A DNA stretch of 64,000 bases. Origin: Nemertoderma westbladi. Lineage: Eukaryota > Animalia > Xenacoelomorpha. Below the pieces are notes generated by a model. The model did no database searches. It saw only the letters and a list, made by a program, of their open reading frames with translations, and had not been told where the DNA came from. The stretch covers positions 37,170 to 101,169 of the forward strand of contig JAUCBJ010007171.1 in the NCBI GenBank assembly GCA_032718475.1, read 5' to 3'. A program made the translations under genes and the position numbers. Shown here piece by piece: positions 7,461 through 44,480 of this stretch. Within the stretch, counting starts at the first letter, position 1; each line of letters starts with the position of its first letter.

Positions 7461-7485
7461 CTTAAATCCTATTTTCTGGGAGCGG

Positions 7486-20212: not shown

Positions 20213-21932
20213 AGCTGCTATATGAGTTTATCGATATTATAATTAATTATAATTTAGGCTAGCGGTCGTCGCTGCATCCCCCTCAATGCCCCCGGACAGC
20301 GCAAGATCCTCAACGCTGATATACTGTCGTCGCTGTGCCTCTCGCCAACGTAGTAGCTACACAACGACAACAATAACCAGCGTGAGTCACTCCACTGTCC
20401 GTCCCAAGGGCTTAGATTTACTGGGGGTTCTTGCTACAGAGGCAGGGTAACTTTCACAACTGCGACTCGCTACTGTAAACACACTTTAGTAGTAACATTC
20501 ACCTATAAATACACAAATTCCACACTCCTGTCACAAATTGTACACATTCGGGCCATTTGTCCGTTAGTCAAGTGCCTTTCAGAATGCCACGTTATTATTA
20601 TGTATCCCTGGAAACTAGCAGGGTGCTATTTATTCCGCATGCTATTCAATGGGGCAAGCTTTCTATTGTTCTTTTAACTCGCTTCTAATTCTAGCGTGGT
20701 TGTTGCTATGGTGACATTATGGAAAGCTAGCAGTAGAATTAGGGTAATTCTCATGCATACAGATCTGGGATGCTATTTAATAGTAATTCTTTAATTGTCA
20801 ATATTCCCATTTATACATGATTTTATGAATTTTATCGGCTATTGACTGTACACTGGAGATTCTCGGACACTAATATGCTTAATAGGGTGAATCTCCGCTC
20901 CCATGATCTATTAATTAATGGAATTTTGGGAATGTTATAAATTGTATAAAATGACGATTTATCAAATTCATGAGAGGATATGAATTTAAAACTTATTCCC
21001 GTAAATTTTATTATTTGATATTAAAATAGACACAATTTTATTCCAGAACATGTCTGGGGACTAGGATCCTTAATTCTATAAATTTTGTCTTTTTAAGAGT
21101 ATCGGTAAGTGCTACGATATCTTAATCGACTAGAATTTTAGAGGATCTAAATTTTAACAGATTTTTGATTTATAGATATTCTAGATTTAATTTATCTGCA
21201 TTTACTCTATTATAACATTTGTTTTAATAGATTTTATAAATATTTATTAAATATTTAATATTTAAGATGGGCACCGATTTATTCCAGAACATGTCTGGGG
21301 ACGTTAACCACTGATTCTAGAAATTTGTCTTTCAAGTATATCGGTGCGTGCCGCGATATCTTAATCAACTAGAATTTCAGATGGTCAAAGGGTTTAACAG
21401 ATTTATTTTGCGTTTTAACGCTACTGTTAAATGGATATCATTCTACTATATGTATTATTTAATATACGGTATGAGAGCAATATTGCAAGAAGCAATGTCA
21501 GTGAGAAGAGGCAAGTCGTTTCCAAGGTCTACCCAGAGCTTGGTTTAGCCGAGACACGAGGATCTGAACTTTGCATTCCTAATACTCTACTTACTAATAA
21601 TACTTGACTACAGTAGGGGCGGTATTGTACTTTTAATAAGTACGGACATTTCATCTTACTGTAGTCACTTATTTATAGTACGATACGGACAGTAAGGAAA
21701 GAGAAAATGAATTATTTCTCGCCGTTAAACGAAATATATAATGCTAAGTAATTAAGTAATAAACGCGAATATATATTGCACTAATCTACTGAATAATCGC
21801 TAAAATAATATTCTACTAAGTAAAATTAAAGAAAACGATTATAATAATAAAATTACATAATAATGCATACATAAATATAAAAATAATAAAAAAATATAAA
21901 ATAATATAGTCACACACCCACTCCAAACGCTG

Positions 21933-22920
21933 TTATGTTGGGGAGTCCCTAGATGTTTGTTGGATTAGGGAGGTGGTCGTGGGAAGAGTATCTTGCCTTC
22001 CATAGTTACCGGATAACTCTTTGTCTCTTTCCAGTAAACATAAACGACCAACTGGGCGATTAAGTTGTTGTGTTTCGAATACAATTTCAGGTTTCTTAAA
22101 GTTACGTCGCATGACGACGAGTTCTACCGATTGCACCAAACCATCATCAGAGATATGAGTCTTGATGATACGACCTGTCTGCCACCGCTTACGTGGAAGA
22201 TCTGATTCCACAATAAGGACCATGTCTCCGGCGCTGACGTTTTCTTGCTGCGCAAACCACTTGGTTCGAAGTTGTAGCGTAGGCAGATAATGTTTTTCGA
22301 AATGGTCAGCAAAACGACGGGATAACAACTGCATAAGTTGCCAAGTTTGTCGGCAGTATTCGTCTCCGTCCGTGATTTCCGATCGTGGGAGCAGGGCTAC
22401 AGGTTTCTTCAGTAGGAAATGCACGGGTGTTAGCGCTTCTAGGGAGTCGGGACTCGATGAGACTGGCATAAGCGGTCTCTCGTTGAGATAGGCAGCGATT
22501 TCCTCCATTAACGTCCGCAAAAGTTCGTCGGTGAGGTTTTAGGTTTGACTTTCTCTGCTCCCTTGGCTTGTCTAATCTCAGCTGTGGTGAGATGAGGAGG
22601 CCATTCATCCTCTTATGTACTTAGGAAGTCGGGTCCACCTAACCAGTCTGGAGTATCTATCAGTTCTTGAGGAGTTGCTCCACTGGAGGCGATGTCGGCT
22701 GGATTAATCGTCCCCGGGCAATGTCTCCATTGATCTACATAAGAGCGACTGAGTATAATGGCTACTCTGTTGGTAACGAATACGCTGAACTGACAGACTT
22801 CATTGGTTATATACTCCAGAACGAGTAAAGCATCAGTCCAATAGACAGTTTTCTCCAGTGGATAGTCGATCTGTTCTGTTACATTCCGGCCGATGGCTGT
22901 AGCGTATAGAGCCGCCTTTA
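21933..22920 (-). pseudogene. BEL RNase H remnant and integrase C-terminal part (catalytic core deleted)
   Basis: IAAYLNERPL, ALTPVHFL, YLPTLQLRTKW, GDMVLI, WQTGRI, DGLV and RPVGRL motifs; YWTDA and NPADIASSG in 22680-22860. Confidence 0.85.
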
Positions 22921-24159
22921 ACTCCGCTCGAGGAACTCGTTTATCAAGTTGTTTATCAAGGCATTAGAGGTTACCAAGGCAACTTTAATTCCATCCGGAG
23001 TTTCAACCCTCAGGTAGGCTACTATACCTATTCCCATATCGCTGGCGTCTCCAAACACATGGAGTTGATAGGAATACGTAGGGAGAACATGATCAAAATA
23101 TGAACGGGAAATTATAAAGTTCTCGATGGCTGGTAGAGAATCTTCCCATTTCATCCACTTCTTTAATAATTCTCCCTTAAGTGGATCGTCCCATGAGTGG
23201 TTTTCAAGCCACATTTGTTGTACTAAACTCCGAGCAATCAACATAACTGGGCTAATAAATCCCAATGGATCGAAATAAGTGCTCAGGATACTTAAACAAA
23301 TCCGTTTAGTCCGAACTGGATTATCTCGCTGTTTTAGCTGGAAAAACAGGATATCTCTCTCTGTGTCCCATTTCAAACCAAGTGTCTTGGTTTCTGGAAG
23401 ATCATCTTTGATTAGGTCTAGGTCTTTCGCTCCTCGATCTTCTACCGGGATCGATTCCAGAAACTCACGGGAGTTGCTGGTGAATTTAGTTAATCGAAAT
23501 CCACCTCTTTTTAAGCACTCTACCATTCCTTTGGCGACATCAATGGCTTCTTCCACAGATGGAAGGGACTTTAAATTGTCGTCCATGTATATATCCCGTT
23601 TGATGTTGTCGATCACCTCTTTTGAGAAGGCGTCCCGGTTGTCATCAGCAGTGGTGCGCACCACTGAACAGGCGTTTGAAGGGCTTGAGATGATCCCAAA
23701 AGCCTGGATGGTCATCCAATACTCCACCGGTTTCTGATTGAGGTCTCCTTCAGGCCACCACAGAAATCGTAGGCTGTCTCGATCCCTATCTAGCGCCTTG
23801 ACTTGTAAGAACATGCCTTCTATATCGGAGGCGAAAGCGATTGAATATTGTCGTAATCTTAAGAGTATTCCCAACAAGGATTGGAGTAAGTTGGGTCCTG
23901 GTAACAACTCGGAATTAAGGGATTGGCCCATGTAGAGGGCGGAGCCGTCGAATACTACTCGTACCTCATGAGGTTTACCGGGTTTGGGAACGTAATGATG
24001 TGTTAAATAGTATGTTCTTTCAGTTAGGGGTGTTCCTTCCGGTACTCGCTCCGCATATCCCTTATTAATAAATTTCTTCAACTGAGTCTGATACATTTCT
24101 TTAGCTGAAGCATTTGCCGTAAGGCGTCGATGTAGTTGAGCAATTCTTTTCTCTGTCAA
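22918..24159 (-). CDS. pol: BEL/Pao reverse transcriptase and start of RNase H (element B, disrupted pol)
   Basis: YYLTHHYV, RVVFDGS, SLNSELLPGP, DIEGMFLQV, YMDD, GGFRLTKF, FDPLGF and HVFGDAS motifs. Confidence 0.92.
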   Translation of the reverse strand: MTEKRIAQLHRRLTANASAKEMYQTQLKKFINKGYAERVPEGTPLTERTYYLTHHYVPKPGKPHEVRVVFDGSALYMGQSLNSELLPGPNLLQSLLGILLRLRQYSIAFASDIEGMFLQVKALDRDRDSLRFLWWPEGDLNQKPVEYWMTIQAFGIISSPSNACSVVRTTADDNRDAFSKEVIDNIKRDIYMDDNLKSLPSVEEAIDVAKGMVECLKRGGFRLTKFTSNSREFLESIPVEDRGAKDLDLIKDDLPETKTLGLKWDTERDILFFQLKQRDNPVRTKRICLSILSTYFDPLGFISPVMLIARSLVQQMWLENHSWDDPLKGELLKKWMKWEDSLPAIENFIISRSYFDHVLPTYSYQLHVFGDASDMGIGIVAYLRVETPDGIKVALVTSNALINNLINEFLERS

Positions 24160-24162
24160 GGG

Positions 24163-27100
24163 TCAGTTGTTTATGAATTTTGGTTCTCGCTTTCGGAATG
24201 GGAGACCGATTTCATACCTACCTTGATCTTTAAGAAAATGTGTAGTTGTCTCCTGGATCTGCTTGGCTCTTTCTTCTTCTACCGATAGGGCCTTATCGTA
24301 GGAATTGGGCTCCACAGCCTCTTGAGTAAAGAATCGTACGGCGTGTTCATCTCGAGTTTTCGCGTTATATCTCTCGATTACGTCATTCAGTTCGTCGTTA
24401 TAGTTGACTTGTCCTGATGGATGAATGACTTGACATAGGTTCACTTGGTTTTGCCACGTCTCGTTTTCCGTAAGGATATCGATTGTATTCTCTTCGTCGA
24501 AGAGCTGATGGATATCGTCATTATCTGAGGAGTATGGTGTTCCCTCAGTTGGGTCGTCAACTTCACTGCTCTCCAGTTTCCATTCACTTAATTGATATAC
24601 CCGTTCTTTTGGTAATCTTTCCATTAGAGTTCTACGTGAAGAGCCAGTAAAGTACCAACCTACTCTAGTTCTTCCCGCATAAACTTGTAATGGTTGCGGT
24701 TGAGCAGGCCGTTTCTCCAATGTCTCAAGCGCTTCATGCGCATTTTGGCCGATGAGTATTTGCACTCCAGGGTAATCTGTGTTGAATCTAGGTATATTAA
24801 GCTGCTGGGTGGAATCGTCCTCATCCCAGTTATAAGGTTCTACTTGGCTGGTAGCGAAGTTCTTTATCGCCACCATTTTTACTGACCTTATACTATGTTC
24901 TCCTAGTTCATCCTGGGGGGTGGACAATGCACCTACATAATAATCAGCTACTACTGTAGATTTCCAAACCTGCATAATTCCTGACATGTTTAACTTAGTT
25001 CGGAACTTGGGTTGTCCAGCAAAGATGTCTTCAGCTAGTTCTTTGTCGATGAATGTTCCTGTGCTACCGGAGTCAAGGAGGGCGTTCACTATATAACTCC
25101 TTTTAGGTCCGTGGACCCTTAACTGCACTACTGGAAATTCTCGGATTCCTACATTGGAAGTTGGTGCTTTCCAAGATGGTTGTCGGTCAGAAGTAGTTAG
25201 GGGGAGCTCGCTGTCTGTGTCTTTTTCATACGTAAGTGCTCGATACACTGCGGTATTTATCAGGTAACAGGATTCGTTTTCATCGGAGAATTCGTCCGTA
25301 TAGAATCCTTCCATCTCAGAACCTTGGTCAGTGTCGTTCACGTCACTGAATTGGACATGCAGTTCGGAATCACTCACCTGACTCGAGTTGTTTCGTTCGA
25401 ATTCAGTGTGCAACAAGATATGATGTTTTGCGCCGCACTTCGCACACCTTGCGTCGGAGTAACAGGTTCGCCTTTGGTGTCCTTGTCTGAGGCAATTATA
25501 ACACAACCGCTTATCCCACATGACTTCCCGTCTATTCTTTAATGATTTCTTTAGGAATTCATCACACACATTCAAACGGTGGGTCCCGTCACATAGCGCA
25601 CATTTCGGTTTGATATTACTTATCTTATTTTGAGTAACGTTGTGCACACTCATTCTTTCTTCGGGCTTTCTTACCTGAATTCTCTTAGGAGACGTAGGAG
25701 GAGTTTTTCTTACCTGTTCTCTCCTGTCATTGGTTCGAGACTTGAATTTACTTACGTCTTTAGGCGTTTTATTGACATAATAAGATCTTTCAGTGTCTTT
25801 CCCGCTGTCTTCTTCTTGAGAAGCCTGGCTTTCGCCGTCGTCGGTATAACACACTGGTGTTACTTTTCTCCTAGAAATGGGTTTCTCACTTACCTTGTTT
25901 TCCGGTGTCTTCTCTCTGGACTGCTTTAGGAGCTATAATTTCACTTCTCCATCTAAGAATGACATGAGAGGGTCTCGTCATTGTTGTTCCATCATATATA
26001 ACACTTTCTTATCCCAGCGTGTACCTACTCCACCCTTCGGTAAAGTAGAGGCCACGGCTCCAATAACCATAGAACTCTGATATTCATGAGACTTACCTAG
26101 CCAATCTAATTGTCTACAGATCTCTTGAATCTCATCGGAAAACTCTATAATCCCGCTGCTAATGAACTTTCGGGGTGCTACCAATTTTGCATACAAATAT
26201 TTAGCTATGTTATTCCTATTACCATACCTGATGTTTAGTGTATCCCAAACTTGTCTTAATCCATCTGGATGTCCAATAAACTTTAACGCCATTAACTTGG
26301 GAGATCCTTCCAAGCACTCGATGAGGAATCTAAGTTTCTCTCCAGTAGATAGCACAGAGTTCTGTATGTTATCTTTGTAATATTCATTAAAAGGTAACCA
26401 TTTAATCTCATCTCCATTGAACTTGACTATCTCTCCCACCTTTACCGCTTGACGGGCTTCGGTTCTAGCCGTTTGACGCGTAAAACTTTCTTGGGCCATC
26501 ACGTTATTTAATATCGAGTTATCGGTATATAAATTTCTCGGATTATGATCAGGTCTATAGGGAATATCATTGTCAACAGGTTTATAATTACCCTTAATAG
26601 AGTTTACTATAGGAGTTTCCACTTCACTAGCAGTATAGATGCGTGTAGGCTCTACACCTTGCGCATGAAATACTTCAGACCTAACAGGTTGACACATTGT
26701 TACCGGGGGTGGTGGTATACCTCTTTGGGTATTTACTAATTTATTGCGTTCTAACGCGATACTTTGCTGCACTTCTTGCAACTCTAACCTACTTTCCCTT
26801 ACTGTGCCCTTGAATTGCTGAACAGTCTCCTGCATCTGCCCGAGCAGGAGATCCATCCCCCGTCGTCTCTCATCCACCCACTCGACCGCCGAAGCAGGAG
26901 CCGCCAACGTCGTAGCGGGCGGACGAGGGACAACGGGCGACAAATCATTAATATTTCGCTCGGATTCCAGGACATGAACATTTTCAGGGATGGTTCTGTG
27001 GGGCACAGGTAGCTTAGTGCTGTGCAGAGGGAATTTAGAGGTAGGTTCTGGGAGTACAGGTGTCTCTATCACCGAAGGGGTGGCGTCGAGAACAGGCCTA

Positions 27101-28767
27101 ATTATTTCAGGCTCATCTACTATAGTAGGGAGTCTTTCTATTTTAATTATTTGGTCTGTGGGTTCTGTACTACCTAAGTCTGGGTTAGTTAGTTGCTTTC
27201 TAACAGCTGGGGGCAAATCAGGCAATTTCTGACGGTGGGACATTCTTCTACGCCTACTTAGACGAGATCTATTTCCTCTGCCTTCAAGATCTGCGGTATC
27301 GCCTTCATCAGATGATGTATATCCCTGTCTTTTGGGAGTAGATCGACTCATCATCTGCATTTCACTAGCTGTTAACTGTTTATTTATGCAGTCTTGATTC
27401 TCTTGAATATTTTCCAACTCGAGTTGGGTGGTCTCTTCAGATGCTCTTCATTCTGCTTCTGCCACTGCCTCTGCCGCTTTTCTTTCCGCTTCGGCCGCTG
27501 CCACTGCCGCTTTTCTTTCTGCTTCGGCCGCTGCCACTGCCGCTTTTCTTTCCGCTTCTGCCGCTGCCACTGCCGCTGCTGCTGCTGTTTTCTTTCTGTC
27601 TTCTATACGTTTTTTCTTGACTTGTTCTTCTTGGACCCTAGCGATGCGGAGTCTTTCATCAAATTTAGCTTGGTTCGCAGCTATCATATCCGCATCGATT
27701 GCATCCAACACAAGCTTGGCTCCTTCACTATTAGGGCGAAGTCCAGACAGCCGTCTCCTCAACTCTTCGTCACCTACAAATCGTTGATAGTCTGACAGAT
27801 AGATGTCAATAGCATCCCTCTTATGCGGTTTCTCAGCTGTCGCTTCACTTTCCACTTGGGAAAAGGTAGCGTCTGTTGATTCTCCATGAGTTGAGCGCTC
27901 AGCCAGCCGAGCTGTCCACTGGGCCGTTCCTTGAACCTGGAGACTCACCCGCTGGAACCAAGTCTTTACAGCAACTTGCAACGACGTGTCTTGTTTTCTT
28001 TTAGAAGCCTCCTCAAAGGCCGATAAGATTAGTCGGATTCGTAGAATTCTTTCTCTAACTTGATAAAGCAGCTCTCCCTGCTCTTGAGGTCCTTGGGGTT
28101 GTCGAAACAGTTGTTCCTTTAATCGCTCCATAGAGCTGAAGAATCCTTGTACGTATCCTGCTGCGGACCTCTTCCACACAGCTGGATCGATGGTTTCTTT
28201 TGTTACTCCCATCCTGTGTATGTCTTCCCAGGCAGCTTCCGATAAGTCAAACGGTAGTCCGGGTCCGGGGAAGTTCCATTGCGACTCGACCATAGACTTC
28301 AGTTCTTCCCTTGTATATCCCGCATAACTATCCTTGGTCGATCGCTTACTTCTCACCCAATCAATCTGGTGTTCCTCCACCGCAATCAATACCCTAGTGA
28401 GTACGGCTGCAGGAAGGATGAGAAGGGGATCTGAATAAACTGCATCTGCCATCTCAGCTCCGCGCTCGGGTGTCAGCTCTACAGTATCAGCACTACTGGA
28501 GCTGTCGGGCCGCTGAGAAATAAGTTCTCGGCTCGAGTGTTGCTGCTGTTCCGCTGCTTCTTGGTCCCGCTTGACCTGAGCTCGAGTGCCTATGATAGAC
28601 CTATGGTGTTGGACTAGCCTAGGGTCTGATACTACTACTGGAGGGATGATCTTTCTTACAGTAGGAGGTGAATTGAACTTCGGTCTCGCGCGTTCCACAC
28701 TCCTGTCTGGGTCACAGATGGTTGTATCTAAGAGACTGTCTGACAGGTTTTGCTTTGTGTCGGACAT
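24163..28767 (-). pseudogene. gag: BEL gag-protease (element B), frameshifted
   Basis: ORFs 28767-27448, 27417-25978 and 25854-24163; triple knuckle and LLDSGS; close homolog of A. Confidence 0.92.
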
Positions 28768-28902
28768 GTTTGTTTGTACAGTGGAATGCCTACTGCTATA
28801 TTACAGTTAAAGTAAGTCTAGTAATTCAGTATCACCGTTAGCTTAGTAATTAATTACCGATATCGTTACTCTATGTAACGTGATATATATACAATATATT
28901 AG

Positions 28903-30092: not shown

Positions 30093-31192
30093 TTAAGACC
30101 TAATTGATGTAAGACAGGCCTACTATTTATAAATCGTTTGAGTTGATTTATAATATATATATACCCGTATAATGGGTTTTGTCAATATTTGAAATAAATG
30201 TTATTATTTCTAGGAAGGAGTCACTGCACAGAAGCTGTATGCTCTCAGTGAAGTGCTACTTGTTGGACACTAAAACAAATAATTCTAATTTACCTAAGTT
30301 ACTTAATACTACAAATTACGTATAATTCGGGGTGAGATTACAATCTCTAAATAAACATAAAAATTACACGTACGAATTTTTAGGGTAATTTTACAAGAAA
30401 TCTACAAACCAGCCTAACAAAGGGTTAGAAAATCTGGTTATTACAACGGACAGGGTACTACAGTATTTGAAAATAACAAAGCAGTAGTAAATATACTGCG
30501 TTGTCCAGATAGGAAAAATACCACCGTCTGACGACTTATAGCCATATCGCTATAAGTACTACGTTATGTATCACGGAGTGTTCCTACCTAGAAGTTAACT
30601 ACCGCGGTCTACCAGAACCAACGTGCCTATTAACCACTTTACAACACAAATATACTGCCTACACACTAATTACCTTCGGAAAGCACTGTACACTAAACCC
30701 TAAATTAGGTACAAGTACTTATACAACAAATAATCAGCAGTTAGAAATACTTGTACAGCTAAAAGAACCACGGTATCTGCTGGAGTGACCGGGGCACAAA
30801 ATCACCAGTCTTTACCTATGCCAAGCAGCCCTGATGTAGTACCGGAGTTAATTTAACTATAACGGTATATATAACAAGCACAATTACTGTAGGAATAAAC
30901 TTGGGGATATGAATGTTACGAATAATCGCATAAACTCTGAATAATAAATATTACGCTACCCGTACAGACTACACAAACAAAATACAGACCAAACGCTGGC
31001 AGACTACCATCAGGCCTAAACAAACTACAGTATATGCAGACTCCGAAATGGTTAGTTAGTATGCGTTCTAACCGAGTAGTACGACTTATTCTTTCGAGGG
31101 GATTTACCTCACAGCACTGGAAGCCCCTACGTTCCTAACTAGTACTTTATCGGATATACACTCTACACACACTGCAATCTCTTCAGACCTAA

Positions 31193-32127
31193 CAACAGTC
31201 AGACAACAATCTAGCCTACAAATCACCTGTACAATCTGAGCAGGCTTACACGTCTTCTGCTCAATATTAACCTACAAGTAAATAAAACTGACAGAAATAA
31301 GTAAGCTCCAAAAGAAACAAGTGGTGTACAGTCCCTAATCTCTTAAACAGCCTACCGGTATACAATATCACAATCGAAATAATACTAGTACCTGTACTGC
31401 AGTAAGTACCGGTTCGGGTGTTAGGTAGTTAGGCCTACTAGGTACCGGTTGGCCGGTACTTCAGCTTTATTGCCTACTGCAATACAGAAGCAATATCTGT
31501 TATTGTTCGCGCTTTCAGACCTTTAGCAGTTTAACCTGCCAAATTTAGATGTCTTCTAGATTATAAATCGACTTTAGCCTATGACAAATATTTGATACAC
31601 TACATTAGCCGAAGCCAGTCTATGCGCGACCATTCACCCGCTGGATATACCGCTTATCAACAGTCAGACAACAGTCCAGCCTACAAATTATCTGTATAAT
31701 CTGAGCAGGCTTACATGCCTTCTGCTCAATATTAGCCTACAAATAAATAAAACTGACAGAAATAAGTAAAATCCCAATAAAAAACCAGGGCGGGCCCTCC
31801 CTGATTAAATATCAAGACCTACCGGTATATAATTATCAAAATCGAATAATACTGCTGTACTTGTACTGCTGTAAGTACCGGTTCGGGTAGTTAGGCAGTC
31901 AGGCCTACTGATTACCAGTCGACCGGTACTTTAGACTGTATTTATTGCCTACACTACAATCATAACTCAATAACTGTTATTGTTCGCGCTTTCAGACCTT
32001 TAGCAGTTTAACCTGCCAAATTTAGATGTCTTCTAGATTATAAATCGACTTTAGCCTATGACGAGTATTTGATACACTACATTAGCCGAAGCCAGTCTAT
32101 GCGCGACCATTCACCCGCTGGATATAC
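31193..32127 (-). repeat. Diverged tandem duplication (477-bp period) spanning the 5' LTR end / PBS / leader junction of B
   Basis: LTR end TGTTCGCGCTTTCAGACC at 31504 and 31981; CAACAGTCAGACAACA at 31193 and ~31658. Confidence 0.85.
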
Positions 32128-33046
32128 CCGGGAGACTGGATTCGGAAGCTAGACCTTATTGCGGTGTAGGCCTACTGTATTATTCGACTGATCATTAATA
32201 TATAATTTCTGACCAATATTATTCACTTTCGGGAAATATTAACAGTTCCTTTAGGATGTGGCGCTCTAAATATGTAAACAGAGTTATGACTTACACTAGA
32301 CACAACGGGATGGCTATGGATTCACGTATAAAGCGCATTCTTTAGGAGATGCTTTGTTATCAATCACAATCATGCACACTACTGCACAATGCTGCACACC
32401 GATCTGCTGACCTTCACTAAATTTAGTCACATATAAAGAGAACAACGACCGATACATGTAGTGCCTATGAAATAGCATTAGATTCACTTCAAAACCACTT
32501 TAATGTAAGTCGCAATCGTTATATGTAACCGGTCTCTTACCTTCAGTATATCAAGAAGATTGGGGGTTTTATAATTATTTATCGATATTCCAAATATAAT
32601 AATATTCCATCAACTGATATAATTAATGACCGACAGTAAATAGCAGTAAAAATGCGGTGTTTGTAGTTGACAATATGATTAGGTGAGTTTGTTTGATATG
32701 ATATGGTATGTAGTGATATGATAACAGATATACGTTTCTATGATCAAGCCTACTAATGTTGGGCTAAAGCCTGAAAACACAGAGATTCCAAAGCCGGTCT
32801 TCTGGCATCAGGAAAAAAGGAAAAACATTGACCCATAATGCATTGCGCGATTTCCCGGAGGTTTCTGTACAAATAACAGGAGAATCGCTCTGATTGGTTG
32901 TCCGAACAAAGAAACAAAGGAAAAGCTACACGTGTACATATATATTATCTTTAATTCAGGCCCAACGGCCCATAGACATTACATAGGACAAATGGTATAA
33001 CTGCAATTAAATAATTTAAACTAATATAAGCTAATATAAATATATA

Positions 33047-35947
33047 CTATGAAATAGATTCTAAATTATGTTGGTAAAGCCGCAACGAAAGGTAAGACTG
33101 CCACAATTTAGAGGAGGCTTTGCAACCAAAATAAATTGAAGATAATAGTTTGTTATCAGATGACCTTACACGATTGAAAAGAGAGTATAGTGAAAATCGA
33201 TGAATATGCACAAACGATCTGAGATTGAGACTGACTAACATTGCACTAGCACTATCAAAAGGTGTGAACCCAAATAATTTACGTACTGCATTGTTTATAG
33301 CAACTGAGAGTCGCTTTAAAACGCTCTGTGTGTGATATCCATCAGCCCAAAGGGCATTACAGTAGATACTTGTACAATAAGATCTGAAAAGATGTAATTT
33401 GACATCGAAAGAGCACTTTGAAAATTTCCTGATTAACGAGTTAGATCTGGCATAAAATAACCGGGTTTGGTGTCTAATATCTGTGTCATCGCAAAAGTCG
33501 GAGGTAATTATATGGCCTAAGTACTTAAAAGATGTGACTGTTTCTAAGATTCTGGAACCAATTCGAAAAGTACTACAAACATTACTATTATCTCTCAAAC
33601 GACTATGAAATACCATACACTTACTTTTTACGAGATTAAATACGAGATTATTTTTTCCTGCAAAATCGATACAGATGTCAATAAGTTTTTGCAAACCATA
33701 TGGAGAATTTGCTACTATATTAAGGTCATCAGCGTACACAAAGTGATTGGTAGGTCTACCATTTATTTGACAGCCTACGTTACTGTTACCTAGCGATAAG
33801 GATAGATCGTTTAAAAAAATATTGAAGAAAACAGGAGAGGCCAAACTTCCTTGCCGAACACCGTTAGTACAGCGAAAGGGCTCTGAAGTGTGCCCCCCCC
33901 ACCGCGCGTACACAAGTTGATTAATATACCAATATACTAGAACACGAATTATATGTAAGGGAATTTTACGGTCGCACAGTTTACTAAATAGTGCGTTATG
34001 ATCTACGTAATCAAATGCCTTAGTGGCATCTAGGTAAGCAACAAATACATTCGATCCATGTAGCAAATAGTGATTGATAGTTTCCTTCAAGGAATAAACG
34101 CACAACTCAGTACCTAGCTTTTTTTTAAAACCGAATTGGTTGTCAGTAGTGTATAGGAATACTTCTATTCGCACCAAGAATACAATTTCAAATAATTTGC
34201 TAAAAATACTAGACAGAGAAATCGGGCGATAATTACCTTTGTCTGCTGTAGACGAATTTTTGTCCTTAATTATTGGTACAATAACCGATGTAATTAGACC
34301 TTGAGGCAAAAAGCCATGCACATTACAGGAAGTAAATAGCATAGCTAGTAAAACTGAAAGTTTTTCGGATGCAAATATCACATGTTCTCCAAAAACGTTA
34401 TCTATTCCAGGTGCTTTATGGGTGGAAAGTAATTTAATTGCCGAAATAATATCGCCAGTATGCACAACCATGTCCTTGGAGTACACGATTGTACTAAATT
34501 CATTAGACAGACTGTCCAGTATGGGAGCACCCTTACCGTTGTTAAAAATAGATTTATAATGACTACCCCAAAAATCGGCTATATTTTTTGTTCCACAATT
34601 GCCATCAATATTAGTGGCTAGCGGTGTGTTACACTGCGTGTCCTTTTTTAGTTTTTTCCAGAAATTATAGCTACTGTCAGATTCAAGCGATTTCGCAAAT
34701 TTATTGCTTCTAATTGTGTCAGCGGAGCGTTTACAGTGTCTTACAGCCTGTTTGAACCGAGAACGGGCTTGTATCATCCGCCGGTGCGATGCGCTATTGT
34801 CACGAGGGCAACTGTCAGCTTTCCAGTCTAGAAAAGCATCCCTAGACTCGTGGTGTAAATCACGGACTATGTCGTTCCATCCAGGTAGAGACTCGACTCC
34901 AGAATGTCCACAACTATACGGGATCGTATCATGTGAGGACAGTTTCAGCGATTCTTCGATATCATTAGCGAAATCATTCAATTCATTAAAATGATTAGAA
35001 CACTGAGCATCCTTACATTTAAGGGCCGCCCAAGGAATTTCGATTTGCGATAAGTAAACATCGGAGGCCGCCCTGTATTTCTCCAGGTCCTCTGCAGTGG
35101 TTTTATCCCACTGCGGCCGTGGCGTCGGAGTCGGAGTATCCTTCTCGTTGACGGCCGGGTTAACACTTGCAAAGTCCGCGCATATGTCACAACTTAACGG
35201 TATGTGGTCGGCAAAGCTCGACTCGTAGGCTATAGACACATTGGAAATAATACTCTTCATTGAATTTGTACAAACTATGTGGTCCAGCCAGGATGTTGTA
35301 TTGTGGGCAGTACTAACGAAGGTAAAAGAATCCTGAGGTAGCACCTCGCGATCCAGAATACATAAATTGGTTTCAGCGCACATAGCTGAAAGTTCTGAGA
35401 AGAATAACCTGGCAGGATGCGCGTTGAAGTCGCCCACCACGCAAATGTTGCCAATTGTCGCCGCCTCGATTATTGCATGTATTTTTCCTAAATAGTCCAG
35501 GTACTCATCTAGATTATCGTCACATTCATATGGCATATAAACGTTTATAATTGTAAAAGATGCTGAAGAGGGTGGTGACACTTTAATAATCATTAACCGG
35601 GGATCGGCTGTATCTTCGATTGTAATGTAGTTCGATAATTCGCGTCTCCAAAGGACTGCCAGTCCCCCGTAAGGGCGTCCAACCATGGGCCCATCGGAAA
35701 GGCAAACCGGTGACGAGCCTTTCGCATCAAACAGTGTCGAGATGCATTTTAGTTTACCAAGATCTTCCGTTGGGAGTAAGTGTTCTTGTACGAGAATGAT
35801 ATCTGAAGAGTTGCATAAACCTTTTATAACGATTTCACTATCTGCCGTTCTTATCGAGTTACAGTTATATGATGATAGTTTTAACTTCATGATGATAATA
35901 TATATACATAATGGATGAAGGGATATATTACGATGAACTGGATACAA
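33047..35947 (-). CDS. LINE ORF2: APE endonuclease plus reverse transcriptase
   Basis: SYNCN, LVQEH, NVYMP, GDFNA, WLDH, DHIP (APE); NYRPISL, QFGF, DATKAFD, GVRQG, YADD, FKYLG (RT); uninterrupted 966 aa. Confidence 0.95.
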   Translation of the reverse strand: MYPVHRNISLHPLCIYIIIMKLKLSSYNCNSIRTADSEIVIKGLCNSSDIILVQEHLLPTEDLGKLKCISTLFDAKGSSPVCLSDGPMVGRPYGGLAVLWRRELSNYITIEDTADPRLMIIKVSPPSSASFTIINVYMPYECDDNLDEYLDYLGKIHAIIEAATIGNICVVGDFNAHPARLFFSELSAMCAETNLCILDREVLPQDSFTFVSTAHNTTSWLDHIVCTNSMKSIISNVSIAYESSFADHIPLSCDICADFASVNPAVNEKDTPTPTPRPQWDKTTAEDLEKYRAASDVYLSQIEIPWAALKCKDAQCSNHFNELNDFANDIEESLKLSSHDTIPYSCGHSGVESLPGWNDIVRDLHHESRDAFLDWKADSCPRDNSASHRRMIQARSRFKQAVRHCKRSADTIRSNKFAKSLESDSSYNFWKKLKKDTQCNTPLATNIDGNCGTKNIADFWGSHYKSIFNNGKGAPILDSLSNEFSTIVYSKDMVVHTGDIISAIKLLSTHKAPGIDNVFGEHVIFASEKLSVLLAMLFTSCNVHGFLPQGLITSVIVPIIKDKNSSTADKGNYRPISLSSIFSKLFEIVFLVRIEVFLYTTDNQFGFKKKLGTELCVYSLKETINHYLLHGSNVFVAYLDATKAFDYVDHNALFSKLCDRKIPLHIIRVLVYWYINQLVYARWGGHTSEPFRCTNGVRQGSLASPVFFNIFLNDLSLSLGNSNVGCQINGRPTNHFVYADDLNIVANSPYGLQKLIDICIDFAGKNNLVFNLVKSKCMVFHSRLRDNSNVCSTFRIGSRILETVTSFKYLGHIITSDFCDDTDIRHQTRLFYARSNSLIRKFSKCSFDVKLHLFRSYCTSIYCNALWADGYHTQSVLKRLSVAINNAVRKLFGFTPFDSASAMLVSLNLRSFVHIHRFSLYSLFNRVRSSDNKLLSSIYFGCKASSKLWQSYLSLRLYQHNLESIS

Positions 35948-35961
35948 TAAACCAAATTCCC

Positions 35962-37134
35962 TTAGGAGCGACGTTGACGAGAGTCATTCCAGTCCCTAAT
36001 GAGTGCGTCTCTCGGCCACTTCTCAGCAGCCTCGTCGCCCTTTAGGGTATCAGCGACTGCCTTCGTACAGGTTACTACGAAGGAATTAAATTCCGAGATA
36101 TTTGTTTCTACCTTTTTACAAGTGATGGCGACATCGAATTCCGTGGACACAAACGATGTAACATCCTCCTCCTTTGTATCGGGATGCAGACGGGAGACGT
36201 ACAGCTTTGTACTGCGTGCGATGCCACGAAGCGATGTGGCGTCGTTCTTACCAAAAGTTGCAGGTTTCCTCCGCAAAGCAGGCCGTTGAAAAGGCTGGTA
36301 GGCTGGTAGGCGAGTTTGGCGGATTGGTCGCCCATCCCTGCCAACAGTATTCCATCCCTGCATTCCGCTGTGAATGCTTTCCTCTGATGTCTGTGTACCA
36401 TCCCGTGCAGCAACAGCATACGGCACCGGCATACTGGTTGTACCTGACCCACTGGGGCGCGACGGGTGATCATAGCGTGAAGCGTTCGGATTGAGAAACG
36501 AGTAGCGGGTCCCATCAACGGGTGAAGTAACTACAACCGTCGGAGTACCAGCCGCGTCAATCAACGTGACATCGTTGTCAATTAAAGGTGTACGACAATC
36601 CTGTGATGGATGCGAAGGAATAGATGAAGGAATAGATGCAGGAAGAAACGAACCAGGATCTGAACTCGCTGGTGGACTTGTCTCCAGCGTTTGAACCCTG
36701 TCTTTCAGAGACTTAACATCCCTTACAAGCTCCGCCAGTACTGCATTGGCAGGCAGAACGGGGGGAAGCTTTGTAAAGTCTGCTACAACGAAGCAGATTA
36801 ACGGTTGTATTTCAGTGAACTCTGAAGTCTCGAACATGTTTAGAATATCCGTTAATAAACGTTCACGTTTTTTTTCCCCTGTATGCTTTGTAGAGAACTT
36901 CTTATTAATCTCTCGTCTATTGTCCCCATTACTAGATATTGTATCCACTAGGACTGAACGGGCGGACTCTATGTTCTGCGTTGAGAATCCGGGCCATATC
37001 AACATAGTACTCAATATGTCATCGAATAATTCGCCTTGGGCAACACGAACCCACCCGAAACATAGAATCGCATTTTCTATGAGCGTTTTATTTTCCATTA
37101 GTCGACGACGAAGCCAAAACTCGGACGACAACAA
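35962..37134 (-). CDS. LINE ORF1 (coiled coil plus C-terminal RRM-like domain)
   Basis: Lies directly upstream of ORF2; KLYVSRLHPDTKEEDV...NSFVV...WP motif resembles LINE ORF1 C-termini. Confidence 0.8.
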   Translation of the reverse strand: MLSSEFWLRRRLMENKTLIENAILCFGWVRVAQGELFDDILSTMLIWPGFSTQNIESARSVLVDTISSNGDNRREINKKFSTKHTGEKKRERLLTDILNMFETSEFTEIQPLICFVVADFTKLPPVLPANAVLAELVRDVKSLKDRVQTLETSPPASSDPGSFLPASIPSSIPSHPSQDCRTPLIDNDVTLIDAAGTPTVVVTSPVDGTRYSFLNPNASRYDHPSRPSGSGTTSMPVPYAVAARDGTQTSEESIHSGMQGWNTVGRDGRPIRQTRLPAYQPFQRPALRRKPATFGKNDATSLRGIARSTKLYVSRLHPDTKEEDVTSFVSTEFDVAITCKKVETNISEFNSFVVTCTKAVADTLKGDEAAEKWPRDALIRDWNDSRQRRS

Positions 37135-37511
37135 TCAATATTCAGATATTATAATAAAATATATTTAAATATAAATATATAAATATAAATATCAGTACAG
37201 TAGGCTGGACAAAATATCCTGAAATATCCAAAATATCCAAAATATCTGTCAGTATATATCCCTCTCCATTCATAACACTACAGATCAGCTGTTAGCCGTC
37301 GTCATAGTAACTACACTGTGTCAAGAGGATTTTAGCGTATTGCGACATAAAATTGCTAGTTATGTCCGCTAAAGTACACATACAGAAGAAATTGCTTTTT
37401 ATGTCCACTAAAACACCGGTACAGTACGTAAACGGTTTTTTATGTCCGTTAAACCAACTACAGAGTACTTTGCGGGGAAAATAACCAGCTAATTCTGCAA
37501 AAGCTTTTACA

Positions 37512-38880
37512 GCCCTGGATTGTTAAATCCAGCCGACATTGCTTCTCGCGGCGCCACCCCTCAGGAACTGATAGATACTAAGTGTTGGTTCCAAGGACCT
37601 GCCTTTTTGCGAGGCCACGAAGATAGTTGGCCCCAAAACATAATGCCTGCAGAGATAAGGCAGCAAGTGAAAGGCGCAGAATTCGCTAAGTATAAGAACA
37701 AGGCGTCCAAATCAAAATTATTCAATAACATCGACATATCTTCACTACATGTGCGTGAGAGTGTGAGCCCGCAGACCACCCCAGATAGTGAAGCCCTCAT
37801 TACCCTCTCTGTTCCAGACTTGACTGACGGCCTTTCACCGCTCATTAGCAGGGCCATGGATCACTATAGTTCCTACACTTACTTTGTCGTGCCGTTACCA
37901 TACTGAAGCATTATGTGTACTACCACTGTAATAAAAACAAAATCACACAATGTAGATAATTGGTACACGAAGTAGACTATACAAACAGGCAGCTACTCCG
38001 ACTATCCCAAATGCAAGAAAAGGCTCCACCGTACGGATACCACCTCAAGCACCCCGCTATGCAGTCGAATGATAAATTCTCCAGCGTGATGTTCGACGGC
38101 CTAATCAGAGTGGGAGGTAGGCTTACAAATGCTCCCCTTTCCCGCGTCACAATATTTCCCATTATTATCTATGATCTCGCCATACAAACAAAAGATAATA
38201 CAGGATGTACACAATCGGTTGTTGCACGCTCGAAGGGAGCATATACTTATATTAGTGAAGTGCGCACTAGGTATTACTTTGTAAAACCCAGGAAAGCATT
38301 AAGTAAAGTTCTGCGTAGCTGTTTACCCTGTAAGAAACTGTATTTCCAACCCATGACTCAGTTAGAAGCTCCCTTACCTAAGTAACGTGTTAGCTGCTAC
38401 GAGCCTCCCTTTACACATACAGGTGTAGACTTATTTGTACCAATAGAAGTCAAGAGGGCTCGAACCATGGTTAAAAGATGGTGAGGCCCTCACACCAGCC
38501 CACTTTCTGATGAAAAAGAAAGTAGTGTTGTTGCCAGGTTGAGGTTGAGGACGGTGATGAGTTACTGCGACAGACCTGGAAGATGACTCAACTGCTGTCA
38601 AGCCGATTCGAGAACCACATTGAGCGATTTTATCTTCCCAGCATACAACTCAGGAACAAATGGTTTTCCGTGAAAGACAACGCCAGAGTAGGCGACATGG
38701 TATTAGTAGTGGATCCTGATCTCCCACGGAAATATTGGCAGACAGCGCGCGTAGTAGAAACTACTACGTCCGTCCTATAGGCCACCTCTGCCTGCTAGAA
38801 ATGGCACGCGAAGAATCTGGCAACTACGGCAAGCAAGAAGTCAAGCTGACAGACTTGACATATTTTCTATTGGATTAGTT
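37512..38880 (+). pseudogene. pol: Element C RNase H-integrase remnants
   Basis: NPADIASRG, WFQGPAFL, GLIRVGGRL, CLPCKK, PFTHTGVD, GDMVLV and YWQTARV motifs. Confidence 0.85.
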
Positions 38881-39048
38881 AACTCCCTTGGAACGTTTGA
38901 GTGCACTGCATATCACACTCAAGTGTGGGAACGGGATATGTGTCGTTAACCACTGACCCCCATACGTTTTTTAATAATATGCCATATATTCAGATTGACA
39001 GGCTAACATAATTTATTCTTACATCGCTTCCATCCCCAAAAAACAATA

Positions 39049-39300
39049 GGACTATGGGATGTTTCATGATAAATCGTTTTATACACGGTGCATGAAACTT
39101 GATCTTAGTTCTAGAACAATTACGAATAAAATGATATAAACAATATGACTGTGGGATGTTTCATGATAAACTGTTCTATACAAAGTGCATGAAACTTGAT
39201 CTCAGTTCTAGAACATTCTAGAATATTATTAAGAATTGTGGGGTGTTTCATGATAAGTCGTTATACACACGACGCATGAAACCTGAACCCAACTCTTGAC
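39049..39300 (+). repeat. Three ~95-bp direct repeats with a GTTTCATG...CATGAAAC hairpin in the C post-pol spacer
   Basis: GGATGTTTCATGATAA....TATAC....GCATGAAAC.TGA repeated three times. Confidence 0.75.
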
Positions 39301-40652
39301 AACATGTTGCGATAAGTCATTATTAAACATGACGCGCAGCCAACCAAAACCTTAATAATTGTATGATGATGGTGATAATACAATTGAATGCGGAATCCAT
39401 ATCCTTTATTTCGGTTAAACCAAACTCTGGGTAAATTCTGGAGATGGCCCACCACTTCATGTATAACCCGAGTACATAAGGGAGTACGAGTAACAAATAA
39501 AATTATAATAAACTACACTAGTCATGATAAGTCATTTTTAAACATGTCGCATGACAATAACAAACCTTGGTCTTGCTGTATTATGACAGCCCAATAAAAC
39601 TTGATTGTAGAGTCTTAATTATTACTCCCACTTCTTGTCAATCGCCAGAGTACAGTAAGAGATGTCAATTATTAGTTGGCTTGAAACTTCAAGAACCAAC
39701 ATAGCTTGATATTGATTAATACAATATCACATCCATATAAATCCGGTCAAGTCACTATAATAATAAGCATTACGGGAACGGTCGCGTTCCACTTAGTGGA
39801 TCTCTCCCAAGGGATGAGTAAACCTAGTTTAAGTCACTGGATCGCGTAAATCTATATATATATTATTCATTACTGGTTTAACACCACCAACCCTTTAATC
39901 ACGACATTAATACGACAATAGTATAAACACCGATACTATACAGACAAACACCACAACCAAGTAAATAAATTAAATAATACAACCAACAAAGACGTAATAA
40001 TATCACAGTAGACCCAGATCTGTGTGAATGAGCAATACACTATTCAACCGCTATATTTGCCGAATGTTGACCCTCGATAAATTAATAACTAATTTAAAAC
40101 ATTGGGACGCTGGTGTGTTGCTTGCGCAACCCTTTTATTAAGGTTCAAGATTTTTATCGTACATCTTTCCTAAATTTAATACCTATAAATTTATTTAATG
40201 AGTCCATGGAAACAAACATCAACATTCGGGAAATAGTAAGTTTGTAACGAACATTATGCGTGTTGTGACATTGGGTGTATTAGTTTGCATGATAGTACGA
40301 ATAACAACTATTCTCCGTGTATTTACTGCAGCGAACCAAAACCCTATTGCAGACTAATTGCAGTCGCACTACAATAGTCGATACACCCTGACGAATAGCC
40401 CTCCGAGAGACCGGCCTCGAGTTTTTCCTACGCGTTAGCCGCTTCGTCTTCCAACCGTTCTTCCACACCTGTTGGATAGGGAATAGGCGTAGCGGCGCTA
40501 ACGTGGCCAGGGGCAGCTCGGGTCCGTGTCGGTTGGGGATAAAGGGCGGCTTGCCACTGCCCTATATAAACTCAAATAACCATAATAATTATCGACTCAT
40601 TGGTTCACTTCTGCTGGATTTTTAACATATTTGTTTATTTATAATAACAATA

Positions 40653-42555
40653 ATGGATACTTCTAAGGACGATTCAATGGGCAATATTTATGTGAGTTAA
40701 CAACTTTCAGAGGAATATCGCCGAGGTATGAGAGAGATGATGGAGGATCTGGTGACACCCGGAGCACCACAACAGTATACGGAGCCGCTAATGTCCCCCA
40801 TAGAGATATCAGAACGACTTCATGAACAGATACACCAATATTGATGGATCATACAAACCATTCGTTATATCCGGACATCCAAGCGACCTCATATATTCCG
40901 AAGACGTTCATGAGCGACAAGATATGGAAATGTGGCGCTACCATGTACGAAGACAATGAGAGAATTCCACCCAGATGGATAATGAAGATGCGATTCAGGA
41001 CGCCATGTCAGCGAACGATGCGGAAGCTATCAACAATGTGGCTAGATGTGAGGATTTAATTACCTTCCTCAGAGAAACGTATTTAAATTTGGCAGCAGCC
41101 CAAACCCAGCAAACTCATTACCCCAAAGGCATCCACCCAGATCCAATAGTGGAACTCAAGCGCTTGTACCACACAATGATGTACTTAACCGCAGCTAGAC
41201 CTTTACCCGTGTTGCCGGATCGTTTCGATGCTATTGGGGAGTATCACAAAACTGGTTCCCGATCTCCACACATAAGTCGCCAGGACTTTAAATTATGGTA
41301 TTTCTGTGACGACTGTCCACACCCTAACCAACAAGTAAACCATGATGACCACGCATGATGGGGCCGACCGGTCAATCACCCCCGTGAACGTTGCTCTAAG
41401 CACAGTTATACGCATTTAACATATGGAGGACACGAGCGTGATTTATTCGGCGTGGATGAACGAGCCTTAAAGAAATTACATAAAATGGAGTGTTTACCCA
41501 TTGACGTCCTACGATTTTCAGTGCGGCCCCCGGCTCCTAAAGTTCAACCGTCTCTAGTTCTTCTCCAGGATTTCGGCCCTTTAGATGAGGATTACTCCGA
41601 ATACCAAGACATGATTCTACCGGAACAGCTGATCCCTCGAGAGGAACCGGTGATAACCCCCTTGATACAGGCCATGGACAACACTGCGTTCTAACCAGAG
41701 ATCAATACATTGAGAGCTCGTATCGCCGAGGAAGACCTACAATCCTTCTGGGATTTCCTTTCCAATCTCCAAGCTGAGGCTAGAGAGAAAGAACGGCGTG
41801 AGGAAGAAGCGATAGCGCTGGAGGATGCCGACCTCATCGTCTACCGCCAACCTTATGTCCAATCGTTGATGGAAGGTTTTCAACCTAAACGTTACGTTCA
41901 CCCTTCCATGCAGCATAAGGTCTTCGGCACCAAGCAACCGTGCATCATCGGCGTGGCCACTGAAACCGCTTGTGCTATTGCCGATGTTCCGATGTTAAAG
42001 ATGCCTACCCTGGAACCATTACGTGTAGATGGTGAATTAGTTCCCCTTCTCGCACTTGAGCCGACGTAATTCGGGAAAAGATCCATGGAATAAATGTAGC
42101 GCATTGTCCTTTACACTATCCCTTCTACGGAATTAAAGACCATCCTTGGTTTGTGATGTTTAAACAACACTACGTCATACAACCAGAACACCCTGGACGG
42201 GATATGTGATTCTTACCATATTGGTGAACCCCTTGGACCTCGCCTGGACCAAAACTGGAGGCTTTGCATCTACATTTGGATTATTTGGTGAAATTAACAT
42301 AGTAACATTAACTTATAACATAGTAACAATACAAGCCAGTCCACGTCCACCCTTTAACTTGGAGACATTTATGGATTACCGTCTCCTCATATACTGGAAC
42401 TTAGATGTAACCTTCCTGGAGGATGATTTGAAATATATCGAACCAAATGTAAATACTAATGATATGCATAGCTATGAATCCATAAGAATAGCGCACGGAT
42501 GACCCAGTTCATTAGATACTCAATGGAAACCAGTAGAACTGACCACCGAAGTGGC
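40653..42555 (+). pseudogene. Element C accessory ORF, N-terminal part (homolog of the A/B accessory ORF), interrupted by element D
   Basis: FLRETYLN..YPKGIH..ELKRLY.TMMYLTA.RPLPV, WYFCDDC, PEQL, HPSM, ADVPML and FYGIKDHP match B. Confidence 0.85.
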
Positions 42556-44461
42556 TATAGAATTATATTCCCTAAATGCCGTGGATTTTCAAAATTTTAT
42601 TTTTATTCGAATTAACTTTGTAAAAGATTGCTTTGAGTCCTCATTTGTATTGCTATTTCTATTTGTACGCCTATTATTCAAGTGGTTCAGTAGCTCAGTC
42701 GGTAGAGCGTTGGAAATTATATGTGTAGTAGGTATTGAGTTCGAATCCTAGTAAGTGCGAATTATTTTTTGTACAGAATTTCAACTCATTTAAATTAACC
42801 GCTACAAATTAAATTGCATTTGTTTGTACCTAGATTAACCAATGAGACTGCAGTTATTTGATCGTAACCAATGTCGTGCAAGTTATATATTAGCTGGACC
42901 AATAGTTATCTTTAAAAACCTGTTAGAACCTATAGAACAATCGAGAATTTTCTCGATTGATTGCAGCACAAATTTGCTATATAAAGGTGCGATTTGTTCA
43001 TTAGTTATCTCTCAATCACTTCTTGCAATATCTCTTCTGTATTATTCAATATTGTTTATTCTGTCATTAGTTTTCAGATTATATTCGTATTATTATCTGC
43101 AATAAATTCAGAAATACCGCTACCAGCCTTTTCTATCTGTTTTACCATGATTCACTACGGTGAACAAACTTAAGAACAGGATGGCCGGCTAGAGATCGGG
43201 CCGCAGCAATGAACGGGAACATCACGGGAATGTAGACAGGAGACAACCCGCAATACCATCTCAGTTATTCGCCCATCGCCTGAAAGGTTAGACAGCGTTC
43301 GACGCCTTGCTACCTAAGCGTAAGACCAAAAATCAAAAGGTAGAAGTAGTGACACGCTGTAAGCCTAAAATTACATCTTAGGGACTGTACTGTCTTGATT
43401 CAGGAAAAAACCACAGTAGACCTTCACATTCCTACGGGGGAGAGCGCAGGCAGAGATACTAGTACGCAGATAGGACGTAGGCACACCGGTACTAAGCATA
43501 CACATTGGTAGGGTGCAGCAAACTGTACGCCTAACTCTTGCTAAGTGCAGGTGCGTTTGCGACTATATGTAGTACAACGGTGTCCATTGCATTAGAACTT
43601 GTAGGCTAGGAGGGTTGCTGTGTTTCACCTGAATTGGGATTGTACCGTTCAGGCGGTAGGACAGTTTACAACTAGGCGCAAATAAATTGAGGCTATTAGG
43701 GATATACTAACATCTACCGTGTCCCCGCCAACGTCTTGATAGGAAGTTACCCAGCCTACCTAGGTGACTAAAATTCTAGATAGGACGCCAGGATAGCTAT
43801 TTGTAACAGTACGCCTACTGTAGTAAACTAACACATTTCTTCTTAGTATTAGGGGCCTGGTAAATTAAAATTGCCGAATTCTGGGCGTAGCATTAACCTT
43901 ATGCCTGAATTTGAGTCCTGGAAATACGCAAGAGGGGAAGGAACCTTATCATTCGTGAGTATTGGACCTACAAGTTACAAAATTAAAATATTCGTAAAAT
44001 GCACACCGTACCCAGTAATTATATATGTGAAGGAGTAAAACTGCTTTTGACCATTCAGAATTAACACACGCGCGTTAGAAATTATTTACACCTCAAAATA
44101 TATAAAATTAACTTTGTCCGTACTGTGCTTTGCCCGCTAGTTAGACATCTCAAAATCTCTGCCTCTGTACCTAGCTAGCGTCCCTTTCGCCCAACCATAT
44201 AAATCACACCGCGGCAAAGTATACGAGCCCTTTAGTCCGTCAGTGAGTCAGCCTGATTTTAGGATTCGCTGCGCGGGATTTTGTTTTATCGAAGTTTGTC
44301 TGCTCGTAGACTGTTTTCTGCCTCACCGGTTATAAGAGATCGATACTGCAATATATTCGCTTACTTAGAGTTTACTGTTTTGGTGAGAAGGTCGGATTTA
44401 TGATTTGATTCACAAACTTTACAGTAGGATATTGCAGGTATTGTTACTGTCTCTTCAAATA
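42556..44461 (+). repeat. 5' LTR of element D (1906 bp, TAT...ATA termini)
   Basis: Direct repeat of 57823-59716; TATA box at ~42979; AATAAA at 43101 and 43681. Confidence 0.96.
42684..42770 (+). ncRNA. tRNA-like Pol III cassette in the D LTR (second copy 57951-58037)
   Basis: A box TAGCTCAGTCGG with a perfect D-stem GCTC/GAGC, B box GAGTTCGAATCC and T6 terminator; acceptor and anticodon stems do not pair. Confidence 0.7.
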
Positions 44462-44480
44462 GTAGGAATGTGTTTTACTG
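44462..44480 (+). promoter_or_regulatory. Non-tRNA primer-binding site of D, complementary to its own LTR (43425-43435 and 43414-43420)
   Basis: GTAGGAATGTG is the exact reverse complement of CACATTCCTAC; no TGG start. Confidence 0.72.

Follow-up and report, generated by a model that had tools for sequence, protein, structure and literature searches.

How does a BEL/Pao retrotransposon begin reverse transcription when the sequence behind its 5′ LTR offers no site for a tRNA? BEL/Pao elements are officially regarded as tRNA-primed, and how they replicate is considered poorly understood. In the ICTV profile of the Belpaoviridae, the primer-binding site measures 18 nt and accepts host tRNA-Arg or tRNA-Gly, and the LTRs are 0.2–1.2 kb long (PMC8742986). 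The question is raised by a stretch of 64,000 nucleotides from the xenacoelomorph Nemertoderma westbladi (assembly GCA_032718475.1, contig JAUCBJ010007171.1, positions 37,170 to 101,169 of the forward strand; the window hereafter), which contains at least three BEL/Pao elements, A, B and C. Element A lies on the plus strand, has its 5′ LTR beyond the window and terminates in its 3′ LTR, whereas B lies on the minus strand, with a 5′ LTR that starts at 37511, is interrupted by an APE-type LINE and reaches its CA end at 31981. B is likely a composite element, since its two LTRs are only 73% identical in alignment and no target-site duplication is common to them. The two tandem leaders behind its 5′ LTR likely come from different subfamilies, because they are only 80% alike as against 98.6% for the adjoining LTR ends. 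B and C are 47% identical in RT and about 26% in Gag.

The classification of these elements follows from their domains (DUF1759, Peptidase_A17 and DUF5641) and from their structure, with LTRs, a purine tract and the order PR-RT-RH-IN; a target duplication of 5 bp was found in C and none in B. The best 120 RT matches are 38–46% identical, and nearly all carry PF05380. Those with a named source come from corals, echinoderms, molluscs and fish, which fits the marine clades described in the available passages of PMC6238403 without placing B in any of the named clades Sinbad, Sparrow, Surcouf, Suzu and Tas. Given the BEL/Pao domains and the lack of a chromodomain match, Tf1/sushi ancestry is not indicated. 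The LTR of C is 1.9 kb long and starts with TAT and ends with ATA, not TG...CA, and both C LTRs contain a tRNA-like segment (42680–42765 and 57946–58030, plus strand), with motifs that resemble an A-box and a B-box. This segment was called by neither ARAGORN nor Rfam; ARAGORN, and Rfam over 30500–45300, returned no match. A 433-nt insertion in the RT of C (50660–51092) is 98% identical, in inverted orientation, to a copy at 11113–11545. Further reading frames lie beyond pol and before the 3′ LTR in B (18003–20227, minus), A (about 4270–7480, plus) and C (55480–56928, plus), and those scanned, in B and C, gave no Pfam match; the frame in C has zinc-knuckle-like motifs and resembles one at 60594–61724. 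By eye, the remains of another BEL-like coding sequence appear to flank the 5′ LTR of B at 37520–38800.

Table 1. Features of the window's BEL/Pao elements, in window coordinates
Feature	Position	Strand	Remarks
A 3′ LTR; primer-equivalent segment 7971–7981	7486–8711	+	
B 3′ LTR, preceded by purine tract; primer-equivalent segment 17625–17615	16872–17976	−	
B gag-pol, stop-broken, BEL/Pao domains	21933–28800	−	DUF1759, Peptidase_A17, DUF5641
Tandem second copy in B: last 148 nt of LTR, primer-binding site and leader (~315 nt)	31190–31651	−	LTR end 98.6% alike, leader 80%
Leader strand of second helix, tandem copy	31484–31489	−	
Predicted primer-binding site of tandem copy, without TGG	31493–31503	−	11/11 complement
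Leader strand of second helix, intact copy	31958–31965	−	
Predicted primer-binding site adjoining intact B 5′ LTR end, without TGG	31970–31980	−	
B 5′ LTR, portion downstream of LINE, CA end (upper bound approximate)	31981–33000	−	80% to A 3′ LTR, 73% to B 3′ LTR
Core of predicted self-primer, B 5′ LTR (11 nt)	32721–32731	−	11/11 with 31503–31493, 10/11 with 31980–31970
LTR strand of second helix, 5′ of core	32736–32745	−	Duplex −18.8 kcal/mol (duplicated site), −15.1 (intact site)
Reading frames of APE-type LINE within B 5′ LTR	33047–37134	−	Exo_endo_phos, RVT_1
B 5′ LTR, first part, starts TGT	37284–37511	−	82% to start of A 3′ LTR
C 5′ LTR	42556–44461	+	98.9% to C 3′ LTR 57823–59716; 5-bp target duplication
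Candidate intron in C LTR, ending 21 nt before primer core	43320–43403	+	Donor 43320 or 43359
LTR strand of C second helix	43414–43420	+	
Core of predicted self-primer, C LTR	43425–43435	+	11/11; best duplex in LTR, −23.9 kcal/mol
Predicted primer-binding site of C, adjoining 5′ LTR, without TGG	44462–44472	+	
Leader strand of C second helix	44474–44480	+	

The first-pass annotation had proposed that B pairs the sequence behind its LTR with a segment of the LTR itself, and every string that it named was found in place. The duplicated site ATAACAGATAT (31503–31493) and the intact site ATAACAGTTAT (31980–31970) both start without TGG and face the same LTR segment, ATATCTGTTAT (32731–32721, all minus strand); the former is its complement in 11 of 11 positions and the latter in 10 of 11, with a T-T mismatch at position 8. 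A second helix is present in both copies, formed by TTCTGT (31489–31484) and ATAGAA (32741–32736) in the tandem copy and by TTATGATT (31965–31958) and GATCATAG (32745–32738) in the intact one. The equivalent LTR segment differs between copies, reading AAATCTATTAC in the B 3′ LTR (17625–17615, minus) and ATATCCGTTAT in A (7971–7981, plus). For the duplicated site the proposed partner forms the best duplex across the whole LTR; for the intact site, which has only 7 contiguous pairs, it is second best, another segment of the LTR reaching −16.2 versus −15.2 kcal/mol. Among dinucleotide shuffles of the B LTR, 15 of 3000 reached at least 11 bp at offset 0–5 (P about 0.005). Both B sites are near-palindromic (self-complementary in 8/11 and 10/11 positions, compared with 0/11 for the C site), which makes the evidence from B weaker when taken alone. 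Both also start with ATAAC (31976–31980 and 31499–31503, minus), five letters that the Tf1 site shares according to the accessible part of PMC11042837; this is probably a coincidence, since the relatives differ.

Element C repeats the layout of B with unrelated letters: the sequence adjoining its 5′ LTR pairs 11/11 with a segment of the LTR, and a 7-bp helix follows. At least 11 bp at offset 0–5 was reached by 10 of 3000 dinucleotide shuffles of the C LTR (P about 0.003). The energy of the C duplex is hardly altered by predicted splicing, amounting to −29.9 unspliced versus −30.3 and −31.5 with the two candidate donors, and in both B and C the primer core is present unsplit. A splice-built primer was also sought in B and none was found; a pyrimidine-AG 39 nt upstream of the core comes without a strong donor and is missing in A. 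A GTAAG donor is kept in all three A/B LTR copies (32541, 17437 and 8149), 167–188 nt downstream of the primer core, and possibly serves a leader or subgenomic splice.

The first-pass annotation had called for a survey of the clade for missing tRNA sites and for a phylogeny of the RTs. An RT alignment yielded 84 relatives (80 loci on metagenome and 4 on genome contigs), which were chosen by likeness to B, are 35–46% identical to it and fall into 48 families. The LTR end was fixed in only 15 of these families; in 14 the end of the 5′ LTR had been set by the point at which the LTRs diverge, prior to any pairing analysis, and the fifteenth is L055/L079. Another 23 families, mostly without LTR or site sequence and including L057, L037 and L081, were not scored. 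No TGG occurs at offset 0–5 in any of the 14. With splicing allowed, 13 of the 14 pair with their own LTR over 10–15 bp, 12 of them across an exon junction and one, the intronless L070, contiguously; L015 fails the strict test, having one mismatch in its 3′ LTR and a decayed donor in its 5′ LTR. When B and C are added, 15 of 16 reach at least 10 bp and 13 of 16 at least 11 bp, as opposed to 4 and 0, respectively, of 228 non-cognate combinations of site and LTR, a set that excludes 12 pairs among four related families with a common primer. The claim that the pairing is no coincidence and recurs with other letters is thus borne out.

The families outside this count fit the same layout to varying degrees. 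L055/L079 starts with TGG, yet from offset 2 it is complementary to its own junction over 14 bp, and its donor is weaker. A scan in which the LTR end was left free gave 10–12 bp in 10 further families (one of them, L083, read by eye); these were left out of the main count because the scan also yields wrong matches of 10–13 bp, in L011, L035 and L042. The 27 elements considered together (the 14 families, L055/L079, the 10 from the looser scan, B and C) have sites with 20 different 10-mers; the site starts with GT in 24 of them and with AT in 3. A second helix, set off by a small loop, was also read by eye in several relatives, and palindromes are present in a number of sites. The BEL/Pao elements L081–L084 lie on contigs assigned to metagenome-assembled genomes of bacteria or archaea, likely animal DNA in those bins.

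In most relatives, unlike in B and C, an intron splits the pairing segment. Their best unspliced complements are mostly 5–7 nt long and start right after a pyrimidine tract and AG. We had considered this AG as an initiator and dropped the idea once donors that complete the pairing emerged: a GTAAG donor lies 71–164 nt upstream in the relatives' LTRs, and the exon end extends the pairing. In 12 of the 13 pairing families the best partner spans the junction of a GTAAG...YAG intron of 71–164 nt. Judged from these junctions, the LTR intron, which is absent from the first-pass annotation, would build the primer in most relatives. In L049 a 117-nt GT-AG intron is present in the 3′ LTR and precisely missing from the 5′ copy, the sole such case found among the 84 loci and one that stands on a single assembled contig of unspecified molecule type; in L038 and L047 the intron is retained in the 5′ copies. 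The arrangement in L049 is what the model needs, with a spliced 5′ end to provide the primer and an unspliced 3′ end to pass the intron on. We consider it probable that a broad animal BEL/Pao clade gave up priming by tRNA and relies on the spliceosome of the host, acting on an LTR intron, to make the primer. In the same reading, the intron is removed at the 5′ end of the RNA and kept at its 3′ end, being inherited while the 3′ copy cannot compete, and B and C represent lineages whose primer core no longer needs splicing.

The trees place B and C within this clade. They are sisters in the RT trees (support 91/91 and 96/87) and in the RNase H tree (94/89), with the reservation that both are long branches and attraction is possible. 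In the RT tree, the pair is nested in a group of 41 rows, supported at 98/89, that holds most of the spliced-primer families. The sister relationship modifies a conclusion of the first-pass annotation, namely that the shared architecture of two families represents cross-family covariation: the same layout with different letters stands, but independent origins do not, since sister lineages make the pairing a single inherited trait. We infer a loss or shift of the intron in B, C and L070. L057, the single locus with a TGG start of the tRNA type, falls in a separate group of four (the midpoint root of the RT tree serves for drawing only), and its leader (L057:70-95) reads CA-TC-TGG, resembling the tRNA type, next to an LTR end that is unconfirmed. 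Lying apart from the self-complementary families, it represents a natural control.

Sequence variation within family B was followed in public assembled contigs aligned to 31935–32020, from four runs, two of which gave good cover. These contigs are mostly 60–100 nt long and do not link a site with an LTR type. Substitutions at 1% or more fill ten rows, of which eight concern 31965–31969, just 3′ of the site, where most of them fall in the predicted loop, and the other two are positions 1 and 8 of the site. At position 8 of the intact site, the letter that restores 11/11 pairing accounts for 46% and 52% of contig depth. At position 1, T accounts for 29% and 24%; it would mismatch the 3′ end of the primer and may derive from the flanks of solo LTRs. 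The first-pass annotation had predicted compensating letters in the sites of the A-type and B 3′ LTR-type subfamilies. The G expected at position 6 for the A-type appears in loose-end rows only, where it cannot be linked to an LTR type: one contig of run X5, with further differences at positions 1 and 5, and a majority row of run X1 that combines 14 contigs with low agreement. The X1 row has T at positions 5 and 10, as expected for the B 3′ LTR type, again with no link to the LTR type. A predicted G at position 1 is absent among the listed variants, where the T had not been predicted; such absence is weak evidence, as the LTR end is also without rows and 31956 is missing though seen in the other alignment. 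Among the 40 listed of the 394 substitution rows of that other alignment, none concerns the primer core. Contig depth is far greater over the LTR end than over the site. No member of the B family was found in viral contigs (four scans) or in metagenome contigs (a DNA-pattern scan).

The simplest reading is that B and C prime reverse transcription with the 5′ part of their own RNA in the manner of Tf1, and not with a tRNA, because the start of the duplex coincides with the required end of a minus-strand primer, a tRNA site is absent and the site of each family follows its own LTR. We put the probability of this reading at about 0.8. Self-priming likely underlies the combination of a site without TGG, an 11-bp core helix at the LTR end, a second helix set off by a small loop and a clade-wide layout, all read from sequence, and we infer from it transcription start, cleavage and priming as steps. 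Pol II would initiate within the 5′ LTR at a point upstream of the core. Splicing would then remove the LTR intron of most relatives and give the primer; B would need no such step, and C has its candidate intron a short way upstream of the core. The transcript's 5′ part would fold back onto the site across 740 nt in B or 1026 nt in C, and the element's RNase H would cut behind the core's conserved AC/AT terminus, leaving a free 3′ OH from which RT could copy U5 and R as far as the cut. For the region upstream of the cut, intron included, the template would be the RNA's 3′ LTR, which has to remain unspliced. Plus-strand copying of the primer would rewrite the site and so keep site and primer in step. 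Primer retention in Tf1 has reportedly been the subject of an earlier study. As far as the available text of PMC11042837 goes, a DNA copy of the site is retained in about half of Tf1 cDNA. In Tf1 the RNA's initial 11 bases are paired to the site, and RNase H makes its cut after base 11 (passages of PMC7175516). Since the second helix of B and C lies outside the core, their RNA, unlike that of Tf1, cannot begin with the 11-nt core, and the primer region would be longer than the core.

The same RNA segment could in principle act in trans, supplied by short transcripts of solo or 3′ LTRs or by a second packaged RNA. Solo LTRs are likely abundant, judging from the contig depth over the LTR end; the loop to be bridged in cis is long (740–1217 nt), and the intact copy of B tolerates a mismatch with its own LTR. 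We nevertheless find priming in trans improbable, as site and LTR match within families and not between them, L049 carries spliced junction and site on one contig, and Tf1 primes in cis. Whether in cis or in trans, the pairing would concern the primer; it is also conceivable that it is a structure of the leader, acting as a switch for translation, packaging or dimerization, and that priming falls to an internal piece of a tRNA or to some other host RNA. Copia elements include cases of half-tRNA primers that lack TGG (accessible text of PMC6317226), and palindromes occur in several sites. This explanation we hold to be unlikely, given that 20 host primers would be needed for the 20 different sites, every one of which has its match in its own LTR, and that the duplex begins 0–5 nt past the LTR end, where the primer must end, leaving no site free.

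For B considered by itself, chance or a by-product of AT-rich, near-palindromic sequence has to be weighed as well. The self-complementarity of its sites, the short contiguous run of the intact one and a P value of 0.005, which is modest, all point in this direction. The sister family C, whose site is not palindromic, has the same layout, however, the second helix is present in both B copies, and cognate and non-cognate pairs separate clade-wide, so chance is largely refuted and its remaining probability very small.

The closest parallels lie in other superfamilies. In the Ty3/gypsy chromoviruses Tf1, Tf2 and Tj1 and the Tf1/sushi group (Tcn1), too, a tRNA site is absent, about 11 nt after the 5′ LTR complement the element's own LTR and additional helices flank the core (as given in parts of 10.1101/2022.12.06.519325, PMC7175516 and PMC4600332). 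The elements described here differ in belonging to BEL/Pao and, in most relatives, in a primer that would exist only after splicing. The extra duplexes of Tf1 use the LTR downstream of the primer (10.1101/2022.12.06.519325, in the part available), whereas the second helix here uses the LTR upstream of the core. For the TAR lineage of plant Ty1/copia elements (Houba, Osr-1), self-priming has been predicted from an LTR complement of at least 10 bp located 0–5 nt past the 5′ LTR (PMC6317226, available passages). By that rule the duplicated B site and C (11 bp each) and 13 of the 14 relatives qualify, the intact B site pairing in 10 of 11 positions; TAR elements are copia elements of plants, and the same passages do not mention a splice-built primer. 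With the Belpaoviridae profile our elements share the order Gag-PR-RT-RH-IN, Pao-type domains, a purine tract and LTRs, and they depart from it in having no tRNA site, with TGG absent from offset 0–5 in both B sites and in C as in the 14 relatives, and in the LTR of C, which exceeds the given 0.2–1.2 kb and has TA...TA ends (PMC8742986). The feature of B and C belongs to a clade-wide signature that would be Tf1-like in its working and occurs in elements outside the Tf1/sushi group.

In the accessible text of three BEL/Pao papers (PMC554778, PMC3118150 and PMC6238403) no passage deals with the primer site, and the available parts of PMC8220671, PMC3601003, PMC6934838 and PMC5443660 do not mention self-priming of BEL elements. 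A literature search returned no paper on BEL/Pao self-priming or a spliced primer, while subscription journals, Repbase reports or supplements may hold an earlier note. If the reading is true, BEL/Pao would join gypsy (Tf1/sushi) and copia (TAR, predicted) as the third superfamily of LTR elements with self-priming. It would account for tRNA-based annotation missing the primer sites of such elements, and a splice-built primer would tie reverse transcription to host splicing and account for the retention of an intron in a retroelement.
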